From contig JANLWX010000228.1 in the NCBI GenBank assembly GCA_031364845.1, positions 1-44,548 of the forward strand: DNA of 44,548 nt, given 5' to 3'. The stretch is from Candidatus Eiseniibacteriota bacterium (GTDB lineage: Bacteria; Eisenbacteria; RBG-16-71-46). The notes under the pieces are model-generated. The model had not been told where the DNA came from, did no database searches, and worked only from the letters and a program-made list of their open reading frames with translations. The translations under genes and the position numbers were made by a program. Position 1 is the stretch's first letter. Each line of letters begins with the position of its first letter. Shown here one piece after another: positions 2,251 to 39,178 of the stretch.

Positions 2251-2397
2251 GATGGCTCCTTGCGTTTCATAATCGGTTTGAGCACCACCAATCGCAACGC
2301 CCACAGAAACAGCACCGCCGCCAGTGCGCTGAAACTATCCGGCGTGCACATGAACTTGAAGGGGTTTTCTTCTCTCGTGCCGCGTCCGGAGTTTCCC

Positions 2398-2916
2398 ATG
2401 TGGCGACTGATCTCGTTCCTCGCGGTTCTGACGTTCGCGTGCGCTCCACGTCCGACTCCGGCCCCACCTCCCGCTGCCGCAATCACGACCGACCTCACCC
2501 GCTACGTCCTTCGGCCCGCTGTTTACGGACACGTCGCATCCATCGTCGCGCGCTTCACGGCTCCGGCGGATACGGCGGTCTTCATCCTCCATTGCAACGG
2601 AGCGATCTCGTGGGGTCTCCAGCGGCTCGTCGACGGTCGGTGGGAGAATGCGTGGGTCGCGACCACCAACGGTTGCCTCTCGGCGCCGATCCAAGTGACG
2701 GGCGGCGGCACGTACGCGGACACGCTGGAGCTGATCTCGCGGACGGACATGCCTCCGAACCCGGGAACCGTGCAGGCTGAAGTTCCACCCGGCACCTACC
2801 GTGTCGTCTGGTTCGGTGTGCTGACCGCGTTCGATCTCGACGCGCGACCGTTCGGCGACGAACTCGGGCTCGAACATCGCGTCTCGGCACCGATCGTGAT
2901 CGAGCGGGCGCCATGA
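2398..2916 (+). CDS. Hypothetical lipoprotein, small beta-rich (Ig-like) domain
   Basis: GGAG SD at 2388-2391 and ATG at 2398. Signal peptide MWRLISFLAVLTFA-C with lipobox-like Cys, Pro-rich linker, two further Cys and a PPGTYRVV strand; 172 aa. Confidence 0.7.
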   Translation: MWRLISFLAVLTFACAPRPTPAPPPAAAITTDLTRYVLRPAVYGHVASIVARFTAPADTAVFILHCNGAISWGLQRLVDGRWENAWVATTNGCLSAPIQVTGGGTYADTLELISRTDMPPNPGTVQAEVPPGTYRVVWFGVLTAFDLDARPFGDELGLEHRVSAPIVIERAP

Positions 2917-3126: not shown

Positions 3127-3933
3127 TCACTCCGCCAGGAACGCGACTTTCGCCAGCCCCAGCTCGATCTCGTCCCCGTGCCGCAGCCTTACGCCGCGCA
3201 CTGCGCCGCGCGCCACCGCAATCGAACGCCCGTCGCGTGCGATGCGCGTGCCGTGAGCACTACCGTCATCGAACACGCGGAACCCGTCGCCGGCGAAGTA
3301 CTCGATATGCGCATGCGCGCGCGACACGGTCGCGTTCACGGGATCCTCGCGGTCGAGGAACGCGACGTGATTGCGGCGCAGCTTGTGAGCGCCACGGCCT
3401 TCGACGCTTTCCATGCGTCCGAGATTGATGCGCTCGAGCCGCAGCTCGTGAATGCGGCGCCTGGCACCACCGGCCAGCACCATGATGCGAACGGTCGGAA
3501 CCGCGGTTGCGGCGCGCTCGGTCGCGGCGGCAGCATCGGTGCGCTTCTCTCCCGCCGGCCTGCGAAACGCGATCGCATACGGGCTCACGTCTTCGCTCGT
3601 GCGCGGACGCACGCGCACGCGCACGCCGAGCTCCTCCGGCGTTTCGCAGCGCACCTGACGCAGGCGTTCGCGCACGCGCTCTTCGAATGCGCCGGCGCCG
3701 AACACCGCGCGCGCGGCTTCGAGCGTCGCGGGCTCGACGCGCAATTCCACGCGGATCAGCTCGTACGGAAACACGCGCCCGCGCCCGCCCGAGGGCACGA
3801 CGCGCTGCTCGATTTCGTCCAGCATCGGCGGGATCCACTCGAACGGTTCCTCGGGCGCGACTTTGCGGCGCGTGAGCCGGTCGAGTTTTCCTTCGAGCGC
3901 CTTCTCCAGTTTGACCAGCTTGTCGAGCTTCAT
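3127..3933 (-). CDS. FhaA-like protein: N-terminal DUF3662/FhaA_N-like domain plus C-terminal FHA domain
   Basis: ATG 3933 after GAGGG. N-terminal ...GGRGRVFPYELIRVEL...; FHA motifs NLGR, VSRAH, GSAHGT, GDEIELG; 268 aa. Last gene of the operon. Confidence 0.85.
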   Translation of the reverse strand: MKLDKLVKLEKALEGKLDRLTRRKVAPEEPFEWIPPMLDEIEQRVVPSGGRGRVFPYELIRVELRVEPATLEAARAVFGAGAFEERVRERLRQVRCETPEELGVRVRVRPRTSEDVSPYAIAFRRPAGEKRTDAAAATERAATAVPTVRIMVLAGGARRRIHELRLERINLGRMESVEGRGAHKLRRNHVAFLDREDPVNATVSRAHAHIEYFAGDGFRVFDDGSAHGTRIARDGRSIAVARGAVRGVRLRHGDEIELGLAKVAFLAE

Positions 3934-3944
3934 GTCGCCCTCGT

Positions 3945-6900
3945 TCAGATAATGCCGAGCTTGCGGGCCTCGGCGACGATGCGTCCGGCGAGTTCGGCGG
4001 CGCGTCCGCCGCCGTAACCACCGTTTTCGATCAGAACGGAAAAGGCGATCCGTCGCCCGTGTGCATTCGATCCGTCGTTCGTCGCAGCCGATGCGACCGG
4101 TCCGTAGGGCGCGTAGCCGATGAACCACGCGTGCGAAGCGCCGTTCGCGATCTCGGCAGTGCCGGTCTTGCCGGCGATCGCGGGCACGACCGTCGCGAGA
4201 CGGCGCGCGGTGCCATGCTCGACGACGCGGCGCATCATGCGCGCGACGGCCGCAGCGGTGCCGCTGCTGATCACGACCGTGTCGGCCGCGGCACTCGCGG
4301 GCTTCAGCACCACGTGCGGCGAGCGCAGGGTTCCTCCGGCGGCGATCGTGGCGGCGACGCGCGCCATCGTGAGCGGCGTGGCGACCACCTGCGCCTGGCC
4401 GTAGGCGCCTTCGATCGCGTTCGCGCAGCGGCCGGCATCGCTCTTGGGATCGCCCATCGAGATGTCGAAGCTACGTCCCATGTCGCGCAGCGCAGGCCAG
4501 CCGAGTGCTCGTCCGAGTTGCGCGTAGTACGCATTGCACGAGACCGCCATCGCCTCCTCCATGCCGATCGAGCCGTGCGCGTCGTGTCCGGCGTCGTCGC
4601 GAACGAGCCGGCCTTCGATCACACTGCCCGCGCGGCCTCCCGGCAACGGGCGGCAGCTGAAGCGAGTGCCCGCGAGTTCGGCATCGGACGTGAGCGCGGC
4701 GGCTGCAGTCACGATCTTGAACGTCGAACCGGGCGGATAGAGTCCGAATCTCGCGCGATCCATCAACGGGCTCGCGGCGGCATCGGTGGCGTTCTCGGCG
4801 ACGTCGCTGTCGCGCAACAGGCCTTCGGGTGCGGGCTGGCTCACCGAAGCGAGCACCTCGCCGTTCTGCGCATCGAGCACCACGATCGATCCGCGATCGA
4901 GTCCCGCCGCCGCGAGTTGTTCGCGCAGCAGCGAAGTGAGGCGCGACTGCAGGCGCAGGTCGATCGTGAGCGTGAGGTCGCGATCGCGATTGACGAGCGC
5001 GCGCACTTTCGGATGCCGTGGCTGATGGCGATGCCGCCACAGCGGGACCAACTCGCTCAGGTCGCGGCGCACGACGCGCCGGGGTTCGTGGGTGCGCGGG
5101 TCCGTGATCGTCACCGCACGCGCGTGGTCGTCGTAGCCGCTCATGTAGGCATCGTGGCTGCGCTCGACATACGCGGTGTTGGAGGCGCCCCAGTTCTTGC
5201 GGCTCACGACATCGCCGAGCAAATGGAACGTGACGTTGCCGAACGGATAGTGCCGCTCATCCGTCGCGAGCGAGGTGCGATCGATGTCGACGCCGAGCTT
5301 CTTCAGCGCATCGCGGCGATCGGTGAGATCCTTCCAGCGGCTGGTGGCGAGCAGCACGCCGTTACGATCGAACACGTTCCCGCGCGGCACGGCGGCCGCG
5401 GCGAGCCGCAGCCGGGGGTTGTACTGGTAGCGATGCTGGCCGTCGCCCTGCAGTGCCAGGCTCCCGCGCGCGAACGTCGCGTCGGCGCGCACGACCTGGA
5501 TCCACGCGAGCTTCAACACGATCGCGACTCCGAATACGCCGATCACAGCGAGCAGGATGCCGCGCGGAGGATCGAACGCGAGGCCGAGCGCGGTCGGCGG
5601 CGGTGCTGCCGGAGCCGAGGCGCTGCGGAGTCCGGCGAGTGCCAGCCTCGCGGGCGCCTTCGTCTCACCGAGTGCGGCCGCGCCGCTCGCGGCGAGCGAC
5701 CACAGGATGCCGAGCGTGGCGAAGTGCAGGATCTGGGCGGAGCGCCCGAAACTCAGGAACGGCGTGACGACGCCCGACAAAGGCACGATGCCCGCAACCC
5801 CGCCCGCGATCAAGAGCGTTTGAAGTGCCAAACCCAGCGTGAGCCCGAGTCCCAGATACATCGTGTACGCCTCGGGAGCGCGGCGTGCGATGCGGAACCC
5901 GCGCGCGATCAGCAGCGCGAACAACGCGAAGCACGCGAGCAATCCGATGAAGCCCAGCTCCTCGCCCACCGATGCGAGGATGAGATCGGTGTGCGCGGCC
6001 GGGACGACCGACGGCGCTCCCAGCCCGAGCCCGGTGCCCGAGAGACCGCCCGAAGCGAACGCCCACAGTCCGTGTGCGATCTGATCGCCGCGCGAGAGTC
6101 CGTTTTCCCACGGATCGAGCCACATCGCGGTGCGCAGGCTCACGGTGCGCGGGAAGCCCAGGACGTAGCTGACGACGAACGCGCCGAACACCACGGCGAG
6201 GCCGCCGAGAGCGAGACCGACCTCGCGGCGGGTCACCGCATAGAGCGAGAGGAACAGTCCGAGCAGCAGCAGCGCGGGCCCGAGATCACGCTGGACGAAG
6301 AAGAACAGCACGCTCAGCGCGACGCCGATCGCGACCGGCAGCACGTGATGGAGCCGCGGCAGTTTGAGCAGCTTGAGATACCACGCGTCGCCGAGCGGAC
6401 GTTCGTCGAGCTCGCGTAGCAGCGCCCATTTGCTCGAGAAGTAGCCGGCAAGGAACAGCACGAGCAGCAGCCGGATCAATTCCATCGGCTGGGTGCCGAA
6501 CAAGTTGACCTTGGCATCGCTGCCCGAAGGACCGCGGCCGAGCACGACCAGCGCCAGCGACAGTGCCAGCGCTCCGAGCAACGGCACGAACGCGAGCCGG
6601 CGCAGCACGGTGCGCTCGTACGAAGGAATCGCGCACAGCACCATTGCCACGCCGCCAAACAGCACGCCCTCGGCGAAGCGCGTGAACAGCAGTTGATCGC
6701 GCAGTGGCTCGCGCAGGCTCACGAGCATCGCGAAACCGATTCCGCTGAGCGCGAGGGCGACCGGCACCAGCCAGCGGTCGCCGGATTTGCCGGTGGCGTG
6801 GAGCCCGAAGTGCATGAAGCCGAATGCGGCGACGAAGATCAGGACGTGGAGCATGAAGGAGCCGGCGAAGCGGCCGCCATCGCGCACGACCAGACTCGGC

Positions 6901-7472
6901 TTGAGCGCCTGGAACTGCTCGGAAGTGAAGAGTCCGATCATCACGGGTGCTGCGGACGGTTTTGCGGCGGCGTCCTTTGACGCGGCGGGGGCCTTCGCAT
7001 CTCCGCGCGCGGCGGCAGTGGCGAGCGCCGTTGCACCTCGTGCGCTGATACCCGGCAGATCCGCGCGCCCAGCGACGGCGTCCGCGCGCACGCGCATCGT
7101 GGCGAGCGCACCGACGTTTTCGAGCGGCCGCTCGGCGCCGCCCGCCGGCAGGCGCTTGAACATCTCGCTTGCGACGAACGCGCGCTCCGGCGCATCGGGC
7201 AGCACACCGCGCAGAATTGACTCCAGCGGGGCCGCGCTGCGCACCGAGTTCAGGTTGACCATCTCGCCACGCGCCAGCGCGAGACGCACGTTGCCGAAAC
7301 CTGCGCTGCGCGTCGGATACACCATCGCCAGCGCGAGCAGCGCGACACCAAGCGCGAGCCCGAGCGGCACCAGATGATCGCGCTCGAGCGCCGAGCGCCA
7401 TGAGCGGCCGCGGCGGCGCTGTGCGGCCGTGCTCCGCGTGGTTCTGCCGCGCGCCTCGAGCACTGCGCTCAT
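3945..7472 (-). CDS. SEDS glycosyltransferase (RodA/FtsW family) fused to a class B penicillin-binding transpeptidase
   Basis: SEDS motifs QPMELIR, QRDLGPA, PAAHTDLILASVGEELG and VPLSGVVTPFLSFG across many TM helices. Then a bPBP anchor (LKLAWIQVV), the RGNVFDRNG pedestal, and transpeptidase motifs STFK (SxxK), SCN (SxN), KTG. ATG 7472; 1175 aa. Confidence 0.93.
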   Translation of the reverse strand: MSAVLEARGRTTRSTAAQRRRGRSWRSALERDHLVPLGLALGVALLALAMVYPTRSAGFGNVRLALARGEMVNLNSVRSAAPLESILRGVLPDAPERAFVASEMFKRLPAGGAERPLENVGALATMRVRADAVAGRADLPGISARGATALATAAARGDAKAPAASKDAAAKPSAAPVMIGLFTSEQFQALKPSLVVRDGGRFAGSFMLHVLIFVAAFGFMHFGLHATGKSGDRWLVPVALALSGIGFAMLVSLREPLRDQLLFTRFAEGVLFGGVAMVLCAIPSYERTVLRRLAFVPLLGALALSLALVVLGRGPSGSDAKVNLFGTQPMELIRLLLVLFLAGYFSSKWALLRELDERPLGDAWYLKLLKLPRLHHVLPVAIGVALSVLFFFVQRDLGPALLLLGLFLSLYAVTRREVGLALGGLAVVFGAFVVSYVLGFPRTVSLRTAMWLDPWENGLSRGDQIAHGLWAFASGGLSGTGLGLGAPSVVPAAHTDLILASVGEELGFIGLLACFALFALLIARGFRIARRAPEAYTMYLGLGLTLGLALQTLLIAGGVAGIVPLSGVVTPFLSFGRSAQILHFATLGILWSLAASGAAALGETKAPARLALAGLRSASAPAAPPPTALGLAFDPPRGILLAVIGVFGVAIVLKLAWIQVVRADATFARGSLALQGDGQHRYQYNPRLRLAAAAVPRGNVFDRNGVLLATSRWKDLTDRRDALKKLGVDIDRTSLATDERHYPFGNVTFHLLGDVVSRKNWGASNTAYVERSHDAYMSGYDDHARAVTITDPRTHEPRRVVRRDLSELVPLWRHRHQPRHPKVRALVNRDRDLTLTIDLRLQSRLTSLLREQLAAAGLDRGSIVVLDAQNGEVLASVSQPAPEGLLRDSDVAENATDAAASPLMDRARFGLYPPGSTFKIVTAAAALTSDAELAGTRFSCRPLPGGRAGSVIEGRLVRDDAGHDAHGSIGMEEAMAVSCNAYYAQLGRALGWPALRDMGRSFDISMGDPKSDAGRCANAIEGAYGQAQVVATPLTMARVAATIAAGGTLRSPHVVLKPASAAADTVVISSGTAAAVARMMRRVVEHGTARRLATVVPAIAGKTGTAEIANGASHAWFIGYAPYGPVASAATNDGSNAHGRRIAFSVLIENGGYGGGRAAELAGRIVAEARKLGII

Positions 7473-7476: not shown

Positions 7477-9528
7477 TCACTGACTGCCGCCGAACAGCGG
7501 CGCGAGGATGCCGAGTCCCATCTTGCGGAGCCGCGCTTCGCGCACATCGCTCTCGCGCGTCTCGACCTTCTGCACGAGCTCCTGGACCTTGCGGATGTAG
7601 CGGCTCACTTCCCCGTACGCCGGAATGGTTTCGTAGCGCTCGAGCGCCTGACGGCAATCCTCGCGCACACGCTCGAGATACTTGTCCTCCTGCGGAATGC
7701 CGCGGTAGTCGGCCGCGCGCGACCAGGCCTTCTCGGCGCGCAAACGGTAACCGTCACCGAGCAGCGCGACGTCGCGGTTGCCGAACGCGTATCCGTTCTC
7801 CTCGGCGATGCCCAGCGCATCCCGCGCGGCTTCGGGATCTTCGAGGCCGTAGACATACGTGCGCGCCAGGCCGAGTTGCGGATCGCTCCAGCGCGGGCGC
7901 AGGCTCGCAGCTTCTTCGAATGCGCTGGTGGCCTCGTTGAAGTAGCGCAGCGCATCCGCCGGACGGCGGCCCTTCGCGGCCTGCGCGTTGATGCGAGCGA
8001 GATGTCCGCGGCAGTAGACGAGTCGCGCGCGGATCGCGCGATCGCGCGGCGCGATCGACGCCGCGTGTTCGAGCAGGCCGATCGCCTTGATCCATCCGTT
8101 CTCGCGAATCACCGGCGTGTCGGAACGGTAGTCCGCGATCAGCTCGTCGGCCGAGGACACGAACCAGTTCTTCACGTCGCCCGACAGCCCGAGTGTGCCG
8201 ACGCGCAGGAAGCTGCGTGATCCGAGCTGGCGATAGCGTTTCCAGACCGCATCCGAATCCCCGCGCGGCAGTCCGGGCAGTGCGGCCTTCAACTCGTTCG
8301 AAGCGCTCATCACCTGTGCTTCGTTGGACATCAGAAAGACCGCGGCGAACACCGCCAGCAGTCGCCAGCGAAATCGAAACCTCCGTCGCGGGACGGAGAC
8401 GTCGGGAGTGGCGGCCGGCGCAGCGGCAACCGGAGCCGCCGAAGTCGCGACCGGCGCAGGCAGTGTGATGTCGGCGGCGCCATTTCCGGCGCCGGCCCCC
8501 AGCGTGCGCCGAGTGTCGTCGAGATCCGCTGCCGCTCCGCTATCCGAAGACACGGTCCGCCGCGTTGCGTCCGATTCCGAAACCGTGCGCCGCGTCCCGT
8601 CGAGATCGTGAACGCCGTTCGAGGACGGCGCGGTACGGCGTGTCGCTTCGTAGCCCGCGGCGGAACCGGCGTCGGCCGACGCCAGCATCGCGCGTCCCTC
8701 GAGGAACGCGGCAAGATCGTCGCGCATCGCCGCGGCACTTGCGTAGCGCCGTTCGAGCGCGGGCGCGAGCGCCTTGCGCAACGCCGCGGCCAGCGACTCC
8801 GGGCAGTTCTCGGGCATCGCGTCGGGACGCGCGCGCGAGCGGATGAACTCTTCGAGCCGGCGCGTGCTCTCGCCGCGGAACGGCTGCTGGCCCGTGAGCG
8901 TTTCGTAGAGCACCACCGAAACCGACCACAGGTCGGAATGCGCATCGACATTGCCGGTTTCGATGCGCTCGGGCGACGAGTAGGGCAGGCTGCCGAATTC
9001 GTTGCGCGTGAGCGGCCGCGTGAGCGACAGCGCCTTGGCGATCCCGAAGTCGAGCACCTTCACCGCGCCCCCCGGCTCGATCCGCACGTTCTTGGGCTTG
9101 AGATCGCCGTGCACGATCCCGAGATGGGTGCGCCCCTCGACGGTGCGCGTGAAGCGTTGCGCGGTGCACAGCAGTCCGCACAGCTCGATCGCGATCCGCA
9201 CCGCCTCGCGCGGCTCGAGCGGCCCGCGGCGGATGCGGTCGGACAGGTCCTCGCCCGCGACGTACTCCATCGCGATGTACATGTCGTTCTCGACGCTCTC
9301 TTCGATCTCGAACACCTTCGGAACCCGCGGGTCGATCTCCGACAGACGCATCTGGATCAGCGCGCCTTCGCGCTCGGCCTCGCGCACGCCGGGGTCGGTC
9401 TTCGGAATCTTGAGCGCCACCGTGCGGCCATTGCGGCTGTCGACCGCCTTGAGCACGTCCGCCATGCCGCCGCTGCCGAGGCGCGAGAGAACCTCGAACG
9501 GTCCGACGCTGTGATAGCGGACGCTCAT
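7477..9528 (-). CDS. Hanks-type Ser/Thr protein kinase (non-RD), membrane-anchored, TPR-like C-terminal domain
   Basis: LGSGGMADV Gly-loop, VALK, HGDLKPKN, DFG, YSSPE, SDLWS. Then a linker with TRRT repeats, a short hydrophobic segment RWRLLAVFAAVFLM and helical Ala-rich repeats. ATG 9528 after AGGAG; 683 aa. Confidence 0.93.
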   Translation of the reverse strand: MSVRYHSVGPFEVLSRLGSGGMADVLKAVDSRNGRTVALKIPKTDPGVREAEREGALIQMRLSEIDPRVPKVFEIEESVENDMYIAMEYVAGEDLSDRIRRGPLEPREAVRIAIELCGLLCTAQRFTRTVEGRTHLGIVHGDLKPKNVRIEPGGAVKVLDFGIAKALSLTRPLTRNEFGSLPYSSPERIETGNVDAHSDLWSVSVVLYETLTGQQPFRGESTRRLEEFIRSRARPDAMPENCPESLAAALRKALAPALERRYASAAAMRDDLAAFLEGRAMLASADAGSAAGYEATRRTAPSSNGVHDLDGTRRTVSESDATRRTVSSDSGAAADLDDTRRTLGAGAGNGAADITLPAPVATSAAPVAAAPAATPDVSVPRRRFRFRWRLLAVFAAVFLMSNEAQVMSASNELKAALPGLPRGDSDAVWKRYRQLGSRSFLRVGTLGLSGDVKNWFVSSADELIADYRSDTPVIRENGWIKAIGLLEHAASIAPRDRAIRARLVYCRGHLARINAQAAKGRRPADALRYFNEATSAFEEAASLRPRWSDPQLGLARTYVYGLEDPEAARDALGIAEENGYAFGNRDVALLGDGYRLRAEKAWSRAADYRGIPQEDKYLERVREDCRQALERYETIPAYGEVSRYIRKVQELVQKVETRESDVREARLRKMGLGILAPLFGGSQ

Positions 9529-9587
9529 CGGCGCTCCTGCGCGCGGGCGACGCCCGTACTCCACGAGCGTGTGCGGGTCGCGGTCAT
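9525..9587 (-). CDS. Putative 20-aa micro-ORF MTATRTRSWSTGVARAQERR bridging the phosphatase and kinase genes
   Basis: Its ATG overlaps the PP2C stop (ATGA 9587-9584) and has GGGAG 6 nt upstream. Its TGA overlaps the kinase ATG (ATGA 9528-9525). Confidence 0.35.
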   Translation of the reverse strand: MTATRTRSWSTGVARAQERR

Positions 9588-11311
9588 CGTCGGCTCCCGC
9601 GCGCCGAAGTTCCGAGCGCGCCCGAACCATTCGCGCGGCCCCACGCTTCGAAGATGTTGTCCTCGGCCAGCGCGGCCCGGATCGAGGGCGGAGCGCCCCG
9701 CACGCCTTCGGCTCCATTGCCTGCGATGACGTTGCCGACCAGCACCGGCGTGGCGTTGCCTTCCAGTTCGACGCCGGCCCGCGACCGGCGTGCGTTACGG
9801 CCGTTGTCGAGGATCAGGTTGTGTCCGAGGCGCGGCGACGCAGGCCGCGAGATCGTCACGCCGGCACCCGGGTTCTTCTGAATCAGGCTCGCGTTCAGGG
9901 ACGCATCTCCGCGACCCTGAAAGACCACGCCCGCGCTGCGCGCTCCGGAGATCTCCACGTCTTCGATCGCGACTCGCGCGTCGCGCACTCGAATACCGAT
10001 GTCGAGCGGACTGCTGTCGCCGGCCGCGATCTTGAATCCCACGATGCGTCCCGCCGAGAGGCCCTCCGCCACGATCGCCACCAGCGGTGCCGAGCCTTCA
10101 CCGCGCGGGATCAGCACGGCCTGGCGGGGAACGCGGCTCATCAGCGTCACACCGTCTTCGAGCCGCACCTGTTCGCGATAGGTGCCGGGCGCGACCGAGA
10201 CCGTGTCGCCGGAGCGCGCGGCCGAGAGCGCGTCGCCGATCGCTCCGAACTCGAGTCCCGGCCCCACCAGCAGCGCGCGCGGCGCGCGCGACGTCTGAAA
10301 CGCGGGACCGAGCGGGAGTCCGGTGCTGGCGGGATTGCGATCGATCAGCGTGAAGCCCCAGAACATCGCAACGCCCGCGAGCGCGCCGAACGCGAACACG
10401 TAGCCGGGTCGCGTGAACCACGGACGTTCGACGGCGTCGGCGTCTGCATTGACCGCGCGAGCGCGCGGTGCGGATGACGACTCGCGCCGCGCTCCGAGCG
10501 CCGTCGCGAAACGGTCGCCCGCCGCCAGCGCCACCGTGACGTTGTCCTTGCCCCCCGCCGCGTTCGCCGCCTCGATCAGCCTTTCGACCGCTTTAGGCTC
10601 GTCGCCCGCATTCTCGCGCACGATGCGCGCGATCGTCCCGCTCGAAACCAGATCCGTGAGCCCGTCGCTGCAAAGAAGAATCGCGCCCTCGGGATCGAAC
10701 GGGAAACGGCTCACCTCGACGAAGTCCTCATCGAGTGGCGTGTGCTCTTCAGCGCCCACCGAGCGGTAGACTTCGTTGCGGCGCGGGTGGCGCATCGCAT
10801 CGGCCTCGCTCAGCTCGCCCTGGTCCTCGCGCATGCCGACCGGCGAATGATCGCGTGTGACTTTCACGATGCCGTCCGCGCCGAGGCGGTAGAGACGCGA
10901 GTCGCCGACGTGCCCCACCGTGACCATGCCGTCCTCGATCACCGCGAGTGTGAGGACGCATCCCATGCCTTCGAGATCTGGGTTCAGGCTCGCGAGGCGC
11001 ACGATTTCGTTGTTGGCGACCGCGATCGCTTCGCGCACGCGCTCTTCGACGCGACCGGTCTGGCGCTCGAGGCGCGAGCGCAGAAACGTGAGCGCGGTCT
11101 CGGCCGCCGTCTCGCCCGCCGCCTGGCCGCCGATGCCATCGACCACGATCAGGATGCCGCGCTCGGGATCGACGTGAAGACGGTCTTCGTTGTGGTCGCG
11201 GATCATCCCGCGATGGGTGGCACCCGCGCAGTGGATCGTGGCGCGTCGCGAACCCGGTCGCGCGGCGATCAGCGTCGCCCCGCTGTCGTGCAGCCGGTCA
11301 GGAAGGGTCAT
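9584..11311 (-). CDS. PP2C/PPM Ser/Thr phosphatase (PstP/Stp1-like) with TM helix and extracytoplasmic right-handed beta-helix domain
   Basis: PPM motifs RDHNED, VVDGIGG, HVGDSR, LCSDGLTD, GGKDNVT. TM YVFAFGALAGVAMFWGFTLI, then GDTVSVAPGTYREQV and Asn-ladder turns typical of pectin-lyase-like beta-helices; 575 aa. Confidence 0.92.
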   Translation of the reverse strand: MTLPDRLHDSGATLIAARPGSRRATIHCAGATHRGMIRDHNEDRLHVDPERGILIVVDGIGGQAAGETAAETALTFLRSRLERQTGRVEERVREAIAVANNEIVRLASLNPDLEGMGCVLTLAVIEDGMVTVGHVGDSRLYRLGADGIVKVTRDHSPVGMREDQGELSEADAMRHPRRNEVYRSVGAEEHTPLDEDFVEVSRFPFDPEGAILLCSDGLTDLVSSGTIARIVRENAGDEPKAVERLIEAANAAGGKDNVTVALAAGDRFATALGARRESSSAPRARAVNADADAVERPWFTRPGYVFAFGALAGVAMFWGFTLIDRNPASTGLPLGPAFQTSRAPRALLVGPGLEFGAIGDALSAARSGDTVSVAPGTYREQVRLEDGVTLMSRVPRQAVLIPRGEGSAPLVAIVAEGLSAGRIVGFKIAAGDSSPLDIGIRVRDARVAIEDVEISGARSAGVVFQGRGDASLNASLIQKNPGAGVTISRPASPRLGHNLILDNGRNARRSRAGVELEGNATPVLVGNVIAGNGAEGVRGAPPSIRAALAEDNIFEAWGRANGSGALGTSARGSRR

Positions 11312-11396
11312 GTCGGAGCGACTTCCAGCAGATCCACCCGACCGCGGCGACGAGTGCCAGGAGGAACAGCCAGCGGAGCGAGAAGAGCAGGCTCAC
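11298..11396 (-). CDS. 32-aa single-TM membrane peptide MSLLFSLRWLFLLALVAAVGWICWKSLRHDPS (FhaB N-terminal anchor-like)
   Basis: GTG 11396 to TGA 11300-11298, below the ORF-track cutoff. It has a clean hydrophobic helix followed by KSLRHD, overlaps the PP2C start by 14 nt, and lies between the fhaA-like and pstP-like genes. Confidence 0.6.
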   Translation of the reverse strand: MSLLFSLRWLFLLALVAAVGWICWKSLRHDPS

Positions 11397-11449
11397 GCGA
11401 GGACCACATGCAGGCGATGGAAACCGCTCAAGCGGAGTCGTCCGTTCAT
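11393..11449 (-). CDS. Putative 18-aa micro-ORF MNGRLRLSGFHRLHVVLA
   Basis: Its ATG overlaps the FhaA-like stop (ATGA 11449-11446). Its TGA overlaps the GTG of the 32-aa peptide (GTGA 11396-11393). Confidence 0.25.
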   Translation of the reverse strand: MNGRLRLSGFHRLHVVLA

Positions 11450-12393
11450 ACCGGGATCTCGGCGCGGAAGCTGATGAAGACCGCGCCGGCCAATCCGATC
11501 TCGGCCTCGGACTTCAACGGCACCTCGAGGTTCCTGTCGACCTTCTCACCGTCGCGCACTTCGATGCTTGATGGGATCGCCGCTCCGTCGACCGTGGTGC
11601 CGAGCGTGCTGAGATCCTTGATGTAGAAACGGCGCTCGGGTTCGTCGTAGCGCAGCCGCAGATGATCGCGCGATACGTCGGGCACGGTCTTGAGTTTTAG
11701 ATCGACCCAGTAGCCGGGGCCGCCTCTTCCGACCACGACCTGCGGCTTCTCCATGCGAAACAGGTGATCGCCGTTCTCGTCGCGGTAGCGGAGTGTGGCG
11801 AGCGCGCCCAAGACCGGTTCGGCGGCGGGCGGCGGCGGAGCCTCGGCGTGCGGGGCACTCGAGTCGGGCATCGAAGGCACGGCCACAGGCCCGGTGCGCG
11901 CCGGGATCGCGGCGGGAGCCGGTACGGCCTGTGAGGCAGCGGGCGCTTCGTGGCTTTCGATGCGATCGCCCCGCCGCGTCGTGACGATGCGCCGCGTGCG
12001 GCTGCCGCTCAGGCTCTCGGACTCGGGCGTGACGAGCGTCGAGTCGACCAGGATGTCGCCAGGCGCCAGTTCGTCGTTGGGATCGGAGATCAGCCGGATC
12101 TCCCACGCCGAGCCGGCCCGTTCGTGCGGCAATCGCGGGCGCCGCAGCGCCTCGCGGACTTTGGCTTCGATCTGGCTCGCGCGGTTCAGCTTCTCGAGTT
12201 CCTCGTCGAGCGCGCGGCGCGCCTGGTCGGCGATCACTGCGGCGAGGCTCTCCAAGCGCTGGAAGTCGGCCGGATGCAGGTAGACGTCGTACGTGGCGGG
12301 CACGATCGTGGAATAGCGCAGTTCTTCACCCTGGCTGCGCATGTTCTCGACCACCTGGGCGATGATGTCGCGACCGCGAACTTTGTCTTCCAT
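11446..12393 (-). CDS. FhaA-like protein: DUF3662/FhaA_N domain, Pro/Ala linker, C-terminal FHA domain
   Basis: IVPATYDVYLHPADFQRL matches the FhaA N-domain pattern. FHA motifs VVGR, VSRDH, DLSTLGTTVDG. Start ATG 12393 preferred (315 aa); ATG 12468 is possible. Confidence 0.88.
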   Translation of the reverse strand: MEDKVRGRDIIAQVVENMRSQGEELRYSTIVPATYDVYLHPADFQRLESLAAVIADQARRALDEELEKLNRASQIEAKVREALRRPRLPHERAGSAWEIRLISDPNDELAPGDILVDSTLVTPESESLSGSRTRRIVTTRRGDRIESHEAPAASQAVPAPAAIPARTGPVAVPSMPDSSAPHAEAPPPPAAEPVLGALATLRYRDENGDHLFRMEKPQVVVGRGGPGYWVDLKLKTVPDVSRDHLRLRYDEPERRFYIKDLSTLGTTVDGAAIPSSIEVRDGEKVDRNLEVPLKSEAEIGLAGAVFISFRAEIPV

Positions 12394-12736: not shown

Positions 12737-13879
12737 ATGTCCAAACCCGCCAAGAAACCACGAGTCCTGATTCTCGGTGCCGGCTTCGGCGGGCTCGAAC
12801 TGAGCAGCGCGCTGTCGGAGGAGATGGGCGACGACCTCGCGATCACGCTCATCGACAAAGCGGAGTGCTTCGTCTTCGGGTTCTCGAAGCTGGAGGTGAT
12901 GTTCGGCCACAAGACCGCGGCCGCGGTGAGCATTCCGTACGCGGGCATCATCAAGCCGGGGGTCACCTTCCGACGCGAGACCATCACGGCGATCGATCCT
13001 GCCGCCCGCCGCGTCACCACCGACGCCGCCACCCACGAGGCGGACATCCTGGTGATCGCGCTCGGTGCCGCGTACGACACCACACCCGGCGTGACCATCG
13101 GAGAGAACGAGTTCTACTCGGTCGAGGGCGCGGTGCGCCTGGGCGAAGTTCTGCCGGCCTTCACGAGCGGCCATGCCGTGGTCGGCGTGTGCGGCGCTCC
13201 CTACAAGTGCCCGCCCGCACCGAGCGAGTGCGCGCTGATGCTGCACCAGCACCTGCTGGAGCGCGGCGTCCGGGACGACTGCCGCATCTCGATCGTGATT
13301 CCGTTCCCGAGCCCGGTGCCGCCATCTCCTGAAACTTCGAGCGCCCTGATCGCGGCGTTCGCCGAACGGAACATCGAATACATTCCCGACCGCCGGGTCA
13401 CGTCGGTGGACACGTCGAACAGGATCGTGACGCTCGACGACGGACGCCGGCTTCCGTGCGACCTGTTCCTCGGCGTTCCGAAACATCGCGCGCCGGACGT
13501 GGTCATCGCGGCCGGGATGACCGAGAACGGATGGGTGACGGTCGAGCCGCGCACGCTTCAGACATCGTTACCTGGCGTCTACGCGCTTGGCGACGTGTCC
13601 AATACGGGCGCTCCGAAAGCCGGTGTGTTCGCCGAGGGCGCCGCGCGTACCGTCGCGGACAATCTGATCGCCCACTTTCGAGGACTGGAGCAGACCGGGC
13701 TCTATGCGGGGGCGGGATCGTGCTACATCGAGTTCGGAGCCAATCGGATCGGCCGCGTCGACGTGGACTTCTTCACAGGGCCCAAGCCGACCGGAACCTT
13801 CCACGAACCGAGCGTGGCACAGCGCGTCCACAAGCAGGAGTTTGCCGACACGCGGCGCGCCCGCTGGTTCGGCCATTAG
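12737..13879 (+). CDS. FAD-dependent oxidoreductase, sulfide:quinone oxidoreductase / flavocytochrome c sulfide dehydrogenase-like
   Basis: ILGAGFGG FAD motif, YKCPPAPSE (first redox Cys), VYALGD, PKAGVFAE, CYIEFG (second Cys). Start moved to ATG 12737; 380 aa. Confidence 0.85.
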   Translation: MSKPAKKPRVLILGAGFGGLELSSALSEEMGDDLAITLIDKAECFVFGFSKLEVMFGHKTAAAVSIPYAGIIKPGVTFRRETITAIDPAARRVTTDAATHEADILVIALGAAYDTTPGVTIGENEFYSVEGAVRLGEVLPAFTSGHAVVGVCGAPYKCPPAPSECALMLHQHLLERGVRDDCRISIVIPFPSPVPPSPETSSALIAAFAERNIEYIPDRRVTSVDTSNRIVTLDDGRRLPCDLFLGVPKHRAPDVVIAAGMTENGWVTVEPRTLQTSLPGVYALGDVSNTGAPKAGVFAEGAARTVADNLIAHFRGLEQTGLYAGAGSCYIEFGANRIGRVDVDFFTGPKPTGTFHEPSVAQRVHKQEFADTRRARWFGH

Positions 13880-14003: not shown

Positions 14004-15458
14004 CTAGAGTTTGATAAACCGGCGCGACAGTTCTTGAGTTCCTGCTTTGAGGCGCGCGAAGTAGACACCTGCGGGAACGACCTCTCCTGTTTCGTTTCGC
14101 CCGTCCCATGAGACGTCGTGGCGTCCGGCAGGCCGATCGCGGTCCGTGAGCATGCGTACCTGCCGCCCTGTGACATCGACGATCTCCACGCGTACGCGGG
14201 CCGGGCGCTGCAACATCATGCTCAGCGTCGTCGATTCGCGGCTGGGATTCGGCACGGGCGCGAGAAGCTGGACGCCCAGATCGCCCGGGCCTTCGATGAC
14301 GTCGACGGTGTCGGTGCTCTCGAACGCGCCGAGGTCGGGCGCCTCTCCGTCGTAGTCGGCGGCGTTACGCGACCACACGATCTGCCCGTGGTGCTCGAAC
14401 GACGCAGTGCCCGCATCGATCGCCGGGCTTCCATCCGAGAGTCTGCGGTCCGCCGACAGCAGAGGATCGCCTGAAAACGTCGTCGCCGCGTCAATGTTCG
14501 ATTGGGAATCGTCGGTGCCGTTCGCGAAGAACAGGTTGTACGCCGCGATCGAGCCGGCACCCACGTCTTTCACCGCGATATTCGTCGTGCGGACGAAGAT
14601 GTTGTTCACCGCGACGAGACTGTCGCCCCCGGTGATCCCGTGGTCGTTGCCGTCGAACGTGTTGTGATAGACGCCCACGCGCTCCTTGAGATTCGCGCCC
14701 TGATAGTTCTCGACCGTGTTCTGACAACACATGATCCCGATGCCGGCCATCGCGTTGTTCGCGATGAGATTGCCTTCGATATGGACCGTCCGCGGCGTGG
14801 GCACGTCGTAGCTGATGAGCTGGATGCCGTCTTCTTCGTTGCCTGTGATCGTGTTGTTCCGGATCACGACCGAGAGCAGCGGGCCGGAGTACGGCTGGAA
14901 GCGCATCTCGATCCCGTCGTCGCTGTTGTTCCGGATCGTGTTGTTCTCGATGATCGTCGTCACCGCATGATCGATGTCGATCCCATCGTCGGCGTTGCCC
15001 TCGAAGATGCAGCCTCGCACCAGCCCACCGGAGCCGGCTTCGTGGTCGATCCCGTCGCCCGTCTCCGTCACCCGATTGTCGAGGAAGTGGAACTTCCCGT
15101 TCGCGCTCACGCCATCATCGGCATTGCGCAGCGTGAGTCCGGAGATGACGGGGATCGCGGCCGAAGCCCCGATCCGGATGACCCGCAGGGCCCCGCCGCC
15201 ATCGATGACCGTCTGGTCGATGAAACTGCGATCGGCCGTCGTATGAAAGTGTGACGCAACGGTGATGGACTTGCCGGTGAGGACCAGACTCTCGAAGTAG
15301 GTCCCCGGGGCGATCAGCACGAGATCGCCGTCGGCGGAGGCATCGATCGCCGATTGGATGGTGGAGTAGTCGGAGGGGACTTCGCGCGTGAGCGCGAAGG
15401 CCGCCGGGGCCGATGACAGGATCAGGGCAAGACTGGCGCTGCAAACGTACGTCTTCAC
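14004..15458 (-). CDS. Secreted right-handed beta-helix protein with C-terminal FlgD-Ig/T9SS-like sorting domain
   Basis: GTG after AAGGAG and a signal peptide ending AFA. VPSDYSTIQSAIDA..GD..LIAPGTY start, repeated N.DDGI coils, SPAIDAG...APDLGAFE motif, and CTD PNP...WDGRNETG..VPAGVYF; 484 aa. Confidence 0.88.
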   Translation of the reverse strand: MKTYVCSASLALILSSAPAAFALTREVPSDYSTIQSAIDASADGDLVLIAPGTYFESLVLTGKSITVASHFHTTADRSFIDQTVIDGGGALRVIRIGASAAIPVISGLTLRNADDGVSANGKFHFLDNRVTETGDGIDHEAGSGGLVRGCIFEGNADDGIDIDHAVTTIIENNTIRNNSDDGIEMRFQPYSGPLLSVVIRNNTITGNEEDGIQLISYDVPTPRTVHIEGNLIANNAMAGIGIMCCQNTVENYQGANLKERVGVYHNTFDGNDHGITGGDSLVAVNNIFVRTTNIAVKDVGAGSIAAYNLFFANGTDDSQSNIDAATTFSGDPLLSADRRLSDGSPAIDAGTASFEHHGQIVWSRNAADYDGEAPDLGAFESTDTVDVIEGPGDLGVQLLAPVPNPSRESTTLSMMLQRPARVRVEIVDVTGRQVRMLTDRDRPAGRHDVSWDGRNETGEVVPAGVYFARLKAGTQELSRRFIKL

Positions 15459-15530
15459 GGTCGTGATGCTCCTTCGGTGGCTGCTCGCATGACCGTCCCT
15501 GCACGGCGTCTCTTCTTAATGAGTAGCATG

Positions 15531-15559
15531 AGTTTACGCCGCCGCTCGTGGCGGATCAA
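15531..15559 (-). promoter_or_regulatory. Putative sigma70 promoter TTGATC-N17-TAAACT for the beta-helix gene
   Basis: Minus strand -35 at 15559-15554 and -10 at 15536-15531, about 70 nt upstream of GTG 15458. Confidence 0.5.
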
Positions 15560-15744
15560 CGTTCGAGTTGGTGTATCTGTCGGCGCTTCCTGGAAGCAGT
15601 AAGGAGGTTAGCCGCGGGCCACGCGCACGGGCGAAGGACTCGAGATCGACCTTTCCTATGGATTCCGCCTTCATCGGCTCCTATGATGTCGCATCGCTTC
15701 GGTCTGTTCGAAGCCGAGTGGAATCCCTATCCACTGAGGCAATC

Positions 15745-18108
15745 ATGCGCCGCACATGGTTGACGACAACATTCTTGATTGCCGGGATCTGCGTGTGCAC
15801 CGCACGCGCAGAAGCCGTGAGTGACGTGCGCATCAGCCAGGTCTATGGCGGCGGTGGCAGCGCCAATCCCGCCGCGGCGTATCACCGCGACTTCGTCGAA
15901 CTCTTCAATGCGGGATCCGTCGCGGTCGACATCAGCGGCTGGGCCATTGAATACGGATCGCCGACCGGCAACTGGGGGGGCACCCCCGCACTCAACGTCT
16001 TCACATTCCCGCCCGGCACGGTCATGCAACCGTGTCGCTACCTCCTGATCGCAATGCCGAACACCAGCTCCACTGGCACGCCCTACATGGGCGCGGCACT
16101 TCCCGTGACGCCGGACTTCGAAGGCGTTGCGTTTCCGGTGACGTCGGGGCCCCAACTGACTCTGGGCAGCACGAACGGCAAGGTCGGTTTGTTCTCGGCC
16201 GCGTCGCCGAACACGCCTTGCGGCTCAGAGGGGGGCGCGTTGGTCGACAAGGTGGCTTATGGCACTTCCAACTGTCCCGATGGAACGGCGGCGGCGGCGC
16301 TAAGCATTACAACGGGCTCCGTGCGGCGCGGTAGAGGCTTCGTCGACACCGATAACAATTCCGCGGACTTCACGGTGGAATCACCGCCCGTTCCTCACAA
16401 CTCGTCGGCATCGCTCTGCAACCTGCCCGTGCCGGAGAACGTCCTGGCAACCCCGCAGTGCGGTGCGATCTCGATCGGGTGGGACACGGTTGCCGGTGCG
16501 GTCGGATTTCGCGTGAAGCGAGACGGCGTCGTCATCACGGGCATGGATACGATTTTCGCACCGCCCTTCGTCGATGCGAGCCCGGGCAATTCTCAACGAT
16601 GCTATGAGGTCTGCACCATCTCGATCGATGGCGACGGTGCCTATTCGCCCGCATCGTGTGCGGTCGCGGGCTCGGCGCCGACGGTCAAAGCCGCCTCGAA
16701 GGACGCGACGGTTCCCGAAGGTGGCAAGACCGGCTTCAGCGTCTTTGCGACGGGCTCGAATCTCACGTATGTGTGGAGAAAGAATGGCGTCGCCATTCCC
16801 GGCGCACCTAATGCCCGATTCATCTCGCTGGATAATGTCCAGACCTCGGACGCGGGAGCCTACGACGCATTGGTGTGCAACGCCTGCGGATGCGACAGCA
16901 GCACGGCGATGGTCCTTCAGGTGTGTCCGACGCCCTCGGCGACCGTTCCGAATCTAGTCTACGGCGTCATCGGCGATGCGTCTGCATCGATATCCGCGAC
17001 CATCAGTGGAGCCGTGTCGGTTCAATGGCTTCGGGATCGCCTTCCGGTGACCAACGGTCCCGACTTCTCGGGCGCGACCACGGCGACACTGACCATCATG
17101 GACCTCGCCGCGCAGGACGCCGGCCTGTACCAGGTGTCCGTGACCGGAGCGTGCACCCCCACCGCGATCAGCAACGTCTGCTACTTCGCGGTCGTAGAGG
17201 ACGCTTCGGTCGTGACCATCGTGATGCACCCGTCCAATCAGTCGGTTGCGCTGGGTTCTCCTGCCACCTTCAGCGTGCTGGCCGCGGGCGGCGGGACCCC
17301 GACCTATCAATGGCAGAAGTTCGATGGGAAATCGTGGCGTAGCGTGCCCGGCGCCACAGCGTCCGTCTATTCCGACCCTTCGGTCGATGCTTCCGATCTT
17401 GGCAGCTATCGATGCGTCGTCACCGCCTCCAACGGCGTGGCGGTGTTCTCGAATCCGGCGAGTCTCAATTCGGTCGGGCTCAGGCTCCTGACCGTGGGAT
17501 ACAAGCAGCTGGCGTGTGGATCGGCGATGGTCACCTGGACCACGAACGAGCCGGTAACCGCGGTCGTCAAGTATGGAAGCGATTGCAGGAGCCTCTCCGC
17601 CACGACCGCCGCAAGTCCGCTGGGACTGTCGGGCTCCGCAGTGATCGAATTGCCGGCGACGGCATTCGCGATGTTCCAGATCGTTGCGACGACACCCGGC
17701 GGAGCCACGGTACAGAGCTCCTGTACCCCTGCCTACTTCCCTTCCATGCAACTGAGCGTCGAAGTCTCGGCGATGCCCGGATACGGAAATCTGTATGCGG
17801 TCGAAGATGGCATTGCGGTCCGCATTCGGCTCAGAAACGATGGGTGCGTGGCGATACCGGGTCCGATCACACTCGAGAAACTTGCGCTGAATGGAGTTTC
17901 GCCGCGCAAGAGCGACGGCTCGGTGGACTTGCCCCGCGATCTGACGGTTCCCGCTCTCGAGTCTGGTGAAACTCGCGATGTGGACGGCGTGATGTTCTCC
18001 CGGTCCGAAGTGGGCCTCCCATCGGGCTCGGACGCCACACTTTGGGGTTCGATTCGCTATGGCGAGAAGCAGAACGTTGCCGTGGCGGGAAAGGTCAGAT
18101 TGCCATGA
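15745..18108 (+). CDS. Secreted lamin-tail-domain protein with FN3-like and immunoglobulin (I-set-like) domains
   Basis: GAGG SD, ATG 15745 and a signal peptide. LTD signature VRISQVYGGGG...DFVELFN...VDISGW; three Ig modules (YVWRKNG..DAGAYD, VQWLRD..DAGLYQ, YQWQK..DLGSYRC); 787 aa. Confidence 0.85.
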   Translation: MRRTWLTTTFLIAGICVCTARAEAVSDVRISQVYGGGGSANPAAAYHRDFVELFNAGSVAVDISGWAIEYGSPTGNWGGTPALNVFTFPPGTVMQPCRYLLIAMPNTSSTGTPYMGAALPVTPDFEGVAFPVTSGPQLTLGSTNGKVGLFSAASPNTPCGSEGGALVDKVAYGTSNCPDGTAAAALSITTGSVRRGRGFVDTDNNSADFTVESPPVPHNSSASLCNLPVPENVLATPQCGAISIGWDTVAGAVGFRVKRDGVVITGMDTIFAPPFVDASPGNSQRCYEVCTISIDGDGAYSPASCAVAGSAPTVKAASKDATVPEGGKTGFSVFATGSNLTYVWRKNGVAIPGAPNARFISLDNVQTSDAGAYDALVCNACGCDSSTAMVLQVCPTPSATVPNLVYGVIGDASASISATISGAVSVQWLRDRLPVTNGPDFSGATTATLTIMDLAAQDAGLYQVSVTGACTPTAISNVCYFAVVEDASVVTIVMHPSNQSVALGSPATFSVLAAGGGTPTYQWQKFDGKSWRSVPGATASVYSDPSVDASDLGSYRCVVTASNGVAVFSNPASLNSVGLRLLTVGYKQLACGSAMVTWTTNEPVTAVVKYGSDCRSLSATTAASPLGLSGSAVIELPATAFAMFQIVATTPGGATVQSSCTPAYFPSMQLSVEVSAMPGYGNLYAVEDGIAVRIRLRNDGCVAIPGPITLEKLALNGVSPRKSDGSVDLPRDLTVPALESGETRDVDGVMFSRSEVGLPSGSDATLWGSIRYGEKQNVAVAGKVRLP

Positions 18109-18121
18109 CCGGGGAAGTGCG

Positions 18122-18859
18122 ATGAAGCATTCCACTCGACTTGCCGCCCGCGTCCTCGTGACGGTTCTCCTGATGTTGCCGAGCACCGCGGGTGCGGATC
18201 TCGACTTCCTCCCCTTGCTCCCCGTCGTCTCGGCTCCCGCCGGAAGCAGCGTCGTGGTCGAAGCGCTGATCCGGAATTCGGGAAACCAGGTCGTGTACCT
18301 GGGTTCTGTGTCGGCGGACCTGATCGAGGGCTTTGCGGGCTCCGATGCGTTCGACGACTACAACGTCTCGGGTCCCGATTCGCTGTTGCCGGGTGAGTGC
18401 TGGGAAGGACCGGTCATCCGGCTCACACTGGCACCGGATGTGACGCCGGCGGACATGAAACAAGTCACGCTCCACTTCGCAGGCGGGCTTCACCGCTACG
18501 ACGGCCAGGCTCTGGGTGAACTCTCCTTCGCCTTGAACGACTCCACCACGCTGCTGTCGGTCCCCGGGCTCGATCCCGCCGAGGGAACCCGGTTCGTGAG
18601 CGTCTCACCCAATCCTGCACGCGGCGCTTCATTGATCGCGTTCGAACTCGCAGCGGAGCAGGCGGTCGACGTCCGCGTATACGATGTGCGCGGTGCCGCG
18701 ATCCGTCTGCTGGCTCACGGCCGCCGAAGCGCAGGCCTGCAGTCGGTGACGTGGGATGGCCGCGACGACGCCGGAGCCCGGTCGGCGCCCGGGATCTACT
18801 TCGTGCGGCTCACCGTTGCCGATGGCATTCGCAAGACCAAGGTCGTGCGCGTCCACTGA
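18122..18859 (+). CDS. Secreted protein: small beta-sandwich domain plus FlgD-Ig/T9SS-like C-terminal domain
   Basis: Signal peptide ending STAGA and CTD SPNPARG...YDVRG...WDGRDDAG..APGIYF. ATG 18122 lies 13 nt after the previous stop; 245 aa. Confidence 0.82.
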   Translation: MKHSTRLAARVLVTVLLMLPSTAGADLDFLPLLPVVSAPAGSSVVVEALIRNSGNQVVYLGSVSADLIEGFAGSDAFDDYNVSGPDSLLPGECWEGPVIRLTLAPDVTPADMKQVTLHFAGGLHRYDGQALGELSFALNDSTTLLSVPGLDPAEGTRFVSVSPNPARGASLIAFELAAEQAVDVRVYDVRGAAIRLLAHGRRSAGLQSVTWDGRDDAGARSAPGIYFVRLTVADGIRKTKVVRVH

Positions 18860-18979
18860 GGTCTGGCTGCGGTCGACGCCTTCACACGGGCAGACTCATC
18901 GAGGTTCCCGAGGCGACGCAGGCGGGCAAGGCATGTGCGGTGCTCGCGGCTTCGGCATAGTCGATGACGGAACACGATG

Positions 18980-19009
18980 CATCGGGCGCCCGGACTGCGG
19001 CGCCCGATG
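18980..19009. terminator. Stem-loop between convergent genes
   Basis: Perfect 11-bp stem CATCGGGCGCC / GGCGCCCGATG with an 8-nt loop; no strong U-tract. Confidence 0.45.
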
Positions 19010-19042
19010 GATCATGGAACTTCAGCGGGAGCGGCGTGCTTC

Positions 19043-23494: not shown

Positions 23495-23517
23495 CGGTTC
23501 TCCGTCCATCATGGTCC

Positions 23518-39166: not shown

Positions 39167-39178
39167 CGGTATGCAGCG

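Follow-up and report, generated by a model that had tools for sequence, protein, structure and literature searches.

Fusions that join a SEDS glycosyltransferase and a penicillin-binding protein of class B (bPBP) in a single open reading frame (ORF) exist in nature, e.g. in Rhodococcus RHA1, and E. coli RodA and PBP2 joined by engineering are active, polymerising lipid II and binding Bocillin (PMC10449877). A further study reports 117 SEDS-pedestal-TPase chimeras, mostly from Actinomycetes in its Table S11, for which a pedestal domain was required and where the single Acidobacteriota row has the reverse domain order; a Senegalimassilia fusion (931 aa) and a pedestal-less 1341-aa fusion of Pedobacter ginsengisoli are both flanked by kinase and phosphatase genes (PMC12516126). 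The two enzyme types also meet signalling genes in the actinobacterial locus fhaA-fhaB-pstP-rodA-pbpA-pknA-pknB (PMC6554272). Here we analyse a SEDS-bPBP fusion, P0001, encoded on the minus strand at 3945..7472 of a 44,548-nt stretch of DNA from a Candidatus Eiseniibacteriota bacterium (contig JANLWX010000228.1; "the window" denotes this whole stretch). We lean towards regarding it as an accessory peptidoglycan synthase in a single chain, of RodA-PbpA kinship, that would be switched by phosphorylation through the gene cassette surrounding it.

A natural single-chain fusion

P0001 is a single 1175-aa ORF without internal stop, and Pfam recognises two domains in it, FTSW_RODA_SPOVE at residues 244-595 (PF01098, E 7.8e-50, 170 bits against a cut-off of 26.4) and Transpeptidase at residues 861-1159 (PF00905, E 4.2e-42, 145 bits). 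No third Pfam family, hence no GT51, was found at E 0.001, and the protein stays below the NCBIfam equivalog cut-offs for ftsW (169 of 337.5 bits), rodA (133 of 336.7) and mrdA (176 of 455). The catalytic motifs, like the anchor helix and the N-tail, lie where the preliminary description of this DNA, which named no strand, had placed them: AHTD at residues 493-496 (D496 codon 5985-5987), STFK at 916-919 (4716-4727), SCN at 978-980 (4533-4541) and KTG at 1102-1104 (4161-4169), all on the minus strand. Residues H494-T495-D496, S916, K919, S978, N980 and K1102-G1104 are invariant in 118/118 aligned close homologs. This set was drawn from the best 120 homologs (1950 passed of 8000 scored), 118 of which exceed 1000 aa and carry both domains at 42-78% identity, while two shorter rows (P0014, P0035) were left out of the alignment. 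In the wider family, 100 representatives of at least 900 aa were aligned out of the best 150, with less than 50% identity to each other. The closest titled relatives belong to Ca. Eisenbacteria (66-74%), followed by Acidobacteriota, and the wider family takes in Bacteroidota and one member of Capsulimonadaceae. Close hosts are known from metagenome assemblies, and PLSDB plasmids gave no match at E 1e-30.

That the fusion is natural, as initially proposed, is borne out by the 118 full-length homologs together with contigs that cross the linker. In run X1, which may be the source sample, a 3796-bp contig spans 5268-9063 with 0 gaps, and a contig of a diverged strain in run X3 spans 5570-5895 with 21 substitutions and 0 gaps. 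Homologs are not always split: the 77 genome loci comprise 32 with both halves in a single ORF, 34 with a distant split pair of SEDS and bPBP genes, one with a PBP2-RodA pair and 10 with the bPBP half alone. Broken ORFs occur in two of the 32 fused loci (L002, L019), both within the SEDS domain and none at the linker. The break in L002, a 79% homolog, is a single in-frame TAG that recurs in G135 and represents either an error or a pseudogene. In a myxococcotal locus (L036), a family-type bPBP half had no SEDS match in the 3.2 kb upstream.

The predicted topology is consistent, in agreement with the preliminary description, since 13 predicted membrane helices and their flanking charges give 13 passes with alternating sides. 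A cytoplasmic N-tail (residues 1-32, 7377..7472) is followed by helix a, a periplasmic insert (residues 57-198, 6879..7304) and helix b, so that two extra helices precede the ten helices of the SEDS glycosyltransferase core (residues 232-598, 5679..6779). Then come a cytoplasmic Ala/Pro linker (residues 599-632, 5577..5678), the bPBP anchor helix (about residues 638-660, 628-661 at its widest; 5493..5561) and the periplasmic bPBP part, composed of a non-canonical pedestal (661-835) and the transpeptidase domain (836-1175; together 3948..5492). All these features are on the minus strand. The AF2 model built with the 118-row alignment reached a mean per-residue confidence (pLDDT) of 90.5 and a pTM of 0.86, being low only at residues 1-10, 612-618 and in a C-terminal loop. 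Its SEDS part has the ten-helix fold of known RodA and FtsW structures (VIA Z 28.9-30.8), e.g. FtsW 8BH1_A (Z 30.8, rmsd 3.0, 330 aligned) and RodA 8TJ3_B (Z 29.3, rmsd 2.9, 319 aligned). The bPBP part matches Eggerthella lenta 4MNR (Z 42.3, rmsd 2.4, 374 aligned), E. coli PBP3 (Z 40.9) and Mtb PbpA (Z 40.8), the last being also the best PDB sequence match of P0001. With its anchor helix ahead of a non-catalytic domain and the SxxK, SxN and KTG motifs, the second half has the features of a class B PBP.

The Ala/Pro linker leading into an anchor helix is present as described, but its long form is specific to the lineage: over the same alignment columns linkers measure 14-56 residues with a median of 16, compared to 42 in P0001, and neither their length nor their sequence is conserved. 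A role of linker threonines as phosphosites was rejected, as 44 of the 118 linkers have no Thr and none shows a conserved Thr column.

Taken together, conserved residues, fold and topology support a bifunctional single-chain synthase, a class already described, and it is quite probable that the SEDS half acts as a lipid II polymerase through D496 while the covalently tethered bPBP half cross-links the glycan at S916. The fusion would fix a 1:1 pairing of both enzymes and hold the stimulating anchor helix in place.

An accessory pair of RodA-PbpA kinship

The host genome encodes FtsW (contig C169) and RodA, both above NCBIfam cut-offs, as well as an FtsI/SpoVD-like gene (contig C190), a PBP2-like gene and MreC. 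The fusion is therefore an extra pair, a third, accessory one besides FtsW/FtsI and RodA/PBP2. Its occurrence is patchy, with 8 of 201 genomes in the host phylum and 12 of 301 in Acidobacteriota, counts that may be too low because only two to three candidates per genome were scored.

In the SEDS tree the 54 fusion rows (of 87) occupy one side of a branch with an SH-aLRT of 100, and likewise the fusion rows are on one side of a branch in the transpeptidase tree (99; 97/93 in a careful tree with 18 of 39 rows). Host-type FtsW and RodA are split from the fusions and the split PbpA-like SEDS proteins with support 100. The trees are unrooted, the SEDS tree is a quick version, rows were picked by similarity (nine of them canonical) and the published Rhodococcus, Coriobacteriia and Pedobacter fusions were not part of them. 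Within this frame, they fit co-inherited halves and a kinship with the RodA-PbpA type, and point to no donor. The split relatives combine a PbpA dimerisation domain with an upstream FHA gene, and two of them, L041 (Actinomycetota) and L061 (Sporomusaceae), have the order fhaA-fhaB-PP2C-SEDS-PbpA-kinase (49 of 85 candidate ORFs scanned), which is the published locus (PMC6554272).

Two observations speak against a PbpA kinship: the link of the transpeptidase domain to PbpA has a weak support of 90/71 in the careful tree and is unsettled in the larger one, and P0001 has no match to the PBPA dimerisation family PF21922 (PBP_dimer_2) at E 0.001, nor to the pedestal family PF03717. Weak pedestal or PBPA dimerisation matches appear in the distant members P0339, P0354 and P0260, and the structural match to PBP3 and PbpA begins around residue 690, inside the pedestal region.

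A conserved signalling cassette

The fusion sits in a same-strand series of genes in the order FhaA_N-FHA, 32-aa peptide, PP2C, kinase, fusion and second FHA protein, all on the minus strand. The FhaA-like protein (11446..12393, 315 aa from the ATG at 12393) consists of FhaA_N and an FHA domain and has a linker threonine, Thr133 (11995-11997), that is invariant (35/35). The PP2C phosphatase (9584..11311) is Stp1/IreP-like below the NCBIfam cut-off and has, besides a membrane helix, an outer domain of the beta-helix type. It is followed after 55 nt by a 683-aa Ser/Thr kinase (7477..9528) with a kinase domain, one membrane helix and a weak TPR-like outer domain, whose stop lies 4 nt ahead of the fusion start, and the second FHA protein (3127..3933, 268 aa) begins 11 nt past the fusion stop. 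Between the FhaA-like and PP2C genes, at the position of fhaB, a 32-aa ORF (11298..11396) encodes a single membrane helix, and a like ORF is present in 18 of 35 cassette loci. Its resemblance to FhaB is unspecific, as hhalign yielded 55% to FhaB helices vs 71% for a control helix.

All four signalling genes (kinase, phosphatase and two FHA) are found in 31 of the 34 loci whose flanks cover at least 5.5 kb on the upstream and 0.9 kb on the downstream side of the fusion, after leaving out 18 loci short of flank and 12 duplicate or short views; these counts are not independent because the loci are related. The cassette also varies in organisation. In four Acidobacteriota genomes (L098, L099, L100, L111) it is duplicated as a whole, with a shorter PP2C in the second copy, and in L116 it is rearranged, with kinases flanking the fusion on either side while PP2C and the two FHA genes lie downstream. 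One 1389-aa sequence (P0254, on a 598-kb contig) is a PP2C-SEDS-bPBP triple fusion in which the phosphatase lies directly ahead of the N-tail.

The juxtamembrane linker of the kinase contains four [DE]xTRRT repeats (8503-8649, minus strand). The motif [DE]xT[RK][RK] occurs in 27 of 28 cassette kinases in one to four copies, with two or more in 19, and no open frame of at least 300 aa in the host genome other than the cassette kinase carries more than one [DE]xT[RK][RK]T (17 occurrences in 2.69 million residues). These repeats are likely autophosphorylation and FHA docking sites. No PASTA domain was found on the cassette kinase, and weak TPR matches were detected in 9 of 10 kinase tails. Both FHA domains have conserved GR and SRxH motifs, which we take to be involved in phosphothreonine binding, and the nearest solved FHA domains are those of OdhI and GarA. 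Thr motifs recur in the kinase linker, the FhaA linker and the N-tail of the fusion.

Phospho-control and the N-terminal tail

The preliminary description had suggested that activation may come from phosphorylation instead of MreC or FtsQLB and had pointed to a Thr-rich site in the N-tail. The context agrees with the first proposal, as seen in the 31 of 34 cassettes, the triple fusion and the conserved T12, and makes phosphorylation plausible. As for the site, a conserved threonine is indeed present, but just T12-x-S14 of the Thr-rich stretch is kept (T12-R-S14 in P0001, 7431-7439, minus strand): T12 occurs in 107/107 aligned N-tails of close homologs although its neighbours vary, and position 14 is Ser or Thr in 106. 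Judging from these patterns, phospho-control in some form is likely, control of the fusion by its own cassette appears slightly better than an even guess, and T12 as the phosphosite is a tentative, rather doubtful assignment. The membrane kinase would autophosphorylate its [DE]xTRRT repeats and phosphorylate Thr133 of the FhaA linker and probably T12 of the fusion, the FHA proteins would recognise the phosphorylated sites and bind to the N-tail of the synthase, and PP2C would reset the marks.

Several findings count against this mechanism or against its activating sign. Two loci with complete cassettes (L113, L114) have no N-tail Thr, although a beta-branched pattern remains, and distant subfamilies, including the Bacteroidota-type, have no N-tail Thr motif either. 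Three of the 34 loci (L108, L109, L110) are devoid of most or all of the cassette, and two of these (L108, L109) keep D496 and the SEDS catalytic residues without cassette genes or N-tail motif. The host has MreC, and in mycobacteria phosphorylation of MviN and FhaA by PknB is tied to reduced peptidoglycan synthesis (PMC6428115), so that the sign of phospho-control could be inhibitory instead of activating.

The strongest alternative is that the N-tail is a docking peptide that binds an FhaA-type scaffold as a beta-strand, independently of phosphorylation, with kinase and phosphatase acting on FhaA and on the kinase itself (an intramolecular switch as in GarA and OdhI) and not on the synthase. 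It would explain why Ile or Val stands in place of Thr in L113-L115 while the hydrophobic pattern stays, and it sits well with the invariant Thr133 of FhaA and with OdhI and GarA as the nearest solved FHA domains. Moreover, a complex prediction of the unphosphorylated residues 1-36 with both FHA proteins gave weak support for binding (score 0.38 vs 0.00 for the best of three controls, among them a replaced FhaA-like chain), with runs agreeing in at least 63% of contacts and a partner pLDDT of at least 52; this result counts equally for the docking step of the cassette mechanism. Among solved pairs 116 of 157 passed the mark applied there, as did 2 of 215 mismatched ones, whereas at scores up to 0.60 it was passed by only 18 of the 157 and by both mismatches. 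On the other hand, a docking peptide alone leaves the constancy of T12 among varying neighbours (107/107) and the direct attachment of PP2C to the N-tail in P0254 unaccounted for, and we regard it as rather unlikely compared to phospho-control of the fusion by its cassette.

A remodelled SEDS active site

Both active sites had been described as intact, which holds for the catalytic Asp and the transpeptidase motifs but not for the SEDS site as a whole. In the alignment to E. coli RodA, D496 corresponds to D262, D396 to D159, R447 to R210 and S578 to S344, and Q328 and E331 lie in the columns of Q111 and E114. D496, D396 and R447 are kept in 54/54 diverse fusion rows. The PL2 Arg-Trp pair (R101-W102 in RodA) is replaced by A320-K321 in P0001 (K321 codon 6510-6512, minus strand). 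This Trp is called invariant and needed for full activity in RodA and SpoVE (PMC10449877); it occurs in 0/54 fusion rows, which mostly have Lys or Arg, compared to 23/24 split and 9/9 canonical rows. Likewise, the G343 column holds Arg or Lys in 42/54 fusion rows and 118/118 close homologs (R577 in P0001, 5742-5744, minus strand), and Gly in 33/33 others. With the Trp absent and G343 exchanged, the statement of an intact SEDS site needs a caveat. The loss of the Trp and the mostly replaced equivalents of R101 and E258 are the points that weigh against ordinary polymerase activity.

They open the possibility that the SEDS half is no normal lipid II polymerase, being slow, restricted to short chains, selective for a different lipid-linked substrate, or a sensor of lipid II that signals to the kinase, while the transpeptidase half would do repair cross-linking. 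The family-wide loss of the Trp, the Arg or Lys at the G343 position and an additional periplasmic helix-hairpin-helix-like domain are in line with such a change. All other RodA residues tested by mutation are nevertheless kept (D262, D159, R210, Q111, E114, K117 as Lys or Arg, S344), and the basic residues now at these two positions may take over pyrophosphate binding from R101. We therefore consider a loss of normal polymerase function quite unlikely and retain lipid II polymerisation at D496 as the probable function of the SEDS half.

The periplasmic insert

The insert between the two extra N-terminal helices had no direct match in PDB sequences, Pfam or the ESM Atlas in the core family, and searches with the fold of the whole model were taken up by matches to the catalytic domains. 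None of 35 core inserts matched the HHH_3 profile, whereas distant fusions carry a recognisable HHH_3 at the same position (P0354 at 1.1e-6). Profile comparisons connect core with distant inserts (87.5%, E 3.6e-6) and distant inserts with the two HHH_3 domains of the host itself (96%, E 3.9e-9), but the direct comparison of core inserts with host HHH_3 fails (1.3%). By this indirect link, we read the core insert as a putative degenerate helix-hairpin-helix (HhH) domain of the ComEA/Tex type. Longer members (P0287, P0298, P0327, P0331, P0365) have an additional carboxypeptidase-regulatory-like beta domain within the insert.

In two split relatives (L044, L070), a T2SSE-family ATPase gene and then an FHA gene lie directly upstream of the SEDS-PbpA pair. 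Such neighbours, together with the HhH insert of the fusions, hint at a link to pilus or DNA-uptake machinery.

Possible roles of the fusion

As an optional module separate from the host elongation and division enzymes, the fusion might be used conditionally, in wall repair, remodelling or a developmental state. A more far-reaching idea, which we hold to be unlikely, is a third optional wall machine of diderms in which a single-chain synthase with a rewired SEDS site and a periplasmic HhH domain is controlled directly by a phosphothreonine code that its N-tail, a TPR kinase and two FHA readers share, needs neither MreC nor FtsQLB, and possibly makes an altered glycan or links the local opening of the wall to a ligand in the periplasm, e.g. 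DNA.

Alternatively, the fusion could be a second synthase for elongation, constitutively active together with MreBCD of the host and similar in this to the Rhodococcus fusion beside mreB, in which case the signalling neighbours would be inherited passengers. Published fusions beside mreB or rlmH have been read as elongation enzymes (PMC12516126), the host has MreC, and the fusions of L108 and L109 persist without a cassette. This role is very unlikely, though, in view of the patchy distribution, the tight spacing of 4, 11 and 55 nt, the missing PBP_dimer pedestal match and the absence of mre or dcw genes among the window neighbours scanned. Finally, a lost stop codon or misassembly joining separate rodA and pbpA genes, for which the adjacent split pairs as nearest non-fused relatives (34 of 77 loci) and the end of 43 of the 120 best short matches near residues 560-640 could be cited, is refuted by the 118 full-length fusions, by about 100 more long representatives and by the gap-free contigs, and has practically no probability left. 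The 120 best short matches were also considered as true split members of the close family and rejected, since they end at scattered places and many are labelled partial or have tails that look out of frame; a few true split members may be among them.

While the fusion alone will not surprise specialists, an accessory synthase with its own kinase, phosphatase and FHA readers bears on two open questions, namely by what means SEDS-bPBP pairs become active in the absence of MreC or FtsQLB and which function the RodA-PbpA-kinase locus has. Such a single-chain enzyme offers a compact system for reconstituting SEDS phospho-control, and the proposed SEDS mechanism can be tested on a natural case, the family-wide loss of a supposedly invariant Trp.

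Other genes in the window

Beyond the cassette, a series of genes for large secreted proteins, among which C-terminal domains of the FlgD-Ig or T9SS-like type and beta-helix, Ig and lectin domains occur, extends over 14004-31047, and ROK regulator, GH16, ABC transporter, GH2-like and GH1 genes at 32465-43831 form a beta-glucan use cluster. A Type III sulfide-quinone reductase-like gene (12758-13879, plus strand) is below the NCBIfam cut-off and ends in TGA without a long continuation, and a 218-aa ORF (2260-2916, plus strand) has a possible lipoprotein-type signal. No tRNA was found in the window, and scanning for promoters and terminators gave no informative signal.

Comparison with known systems

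The class of SEDS-bPBP fusions is already described from Rhodococcus, Coriobacteriia and Pedobacter. Like published bifunctional bPBPs, P0001 is one chain of more than 800 aa in a host that keeps separate FtsW and FtsI. It resembles the Pedobacter fusion in having SEDS and transpeptidase domains in one chain, no canonical pedestal match, kinase and phosphatase flanks and a diderm host with intact FtsWI and RodA-PBP2. Since Bacteroidota proteins of 1217-1394 aa lie within the P0001 family, the Pedobacter protein probably does too. Two tandem SEDS domains were read in that protein (PMC12516126), while relatives of like size in our set appear to have a single SEDS domain interrupted by an insert. 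The main text of that paper has no occurrence of FHA, forkhead or phosphoryl.

With the Coriobacteriia fusions (Senegalimassilia, Atopobium parvulum 4JBF/4R1G, Eggerthella lenta 4MNR) P0001 shares the domain order and the kinase and phosphatase flanks, and their transpeptidase structures are its top Foldseek and top wide VIA matches. The Atopobium chains of these 2013-14 structures are numbered 523-950, which would imply a fused parent chain. Coriobacteriia fusions, however, measure about 930-950 aa and have a PBPA_dimer domain, whereas P0001 has no such match and carries the periplasmic HhH-like insert in addition. The Rhodococcus jostii RHA1 and engineered RodA-PBP2 fusions follow the same path from SEDS via cytoplasmic linker and anchor helix to bPBP, but differ by a canonical pedestal, an mreB neighbour and, in E. 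coli RodA, the canonical Trp; a phospho-cassette is not reported for them in the available part of PMC10449877.

The actinobacterial locus has the same components, i.e. FhaA_N-FHA, a membrane PP2C, SEDS, bPBP and a Hanks kinase, and its PknB reportedly phosphorylates PbpA (Dasgupta 2006). Here, SEDS and bPBP are fused, the kinase lies upstream and has a TPR-like instead of a PASTA outer domain, PP2C carries a beta-helix, a 32-aa helix alone stands at the fhaB position, and a second FHA gene follows downstream, all in diderm hosts and in an accessory role. In the open-access literature we found no paper on such an FHA cassette, insert or remodelled site. What the present analysis adds to the class are the FHA cassette, the shared Thr motifs, the altered SEDS site, the accessory status and the indirectly HhH-related insert.

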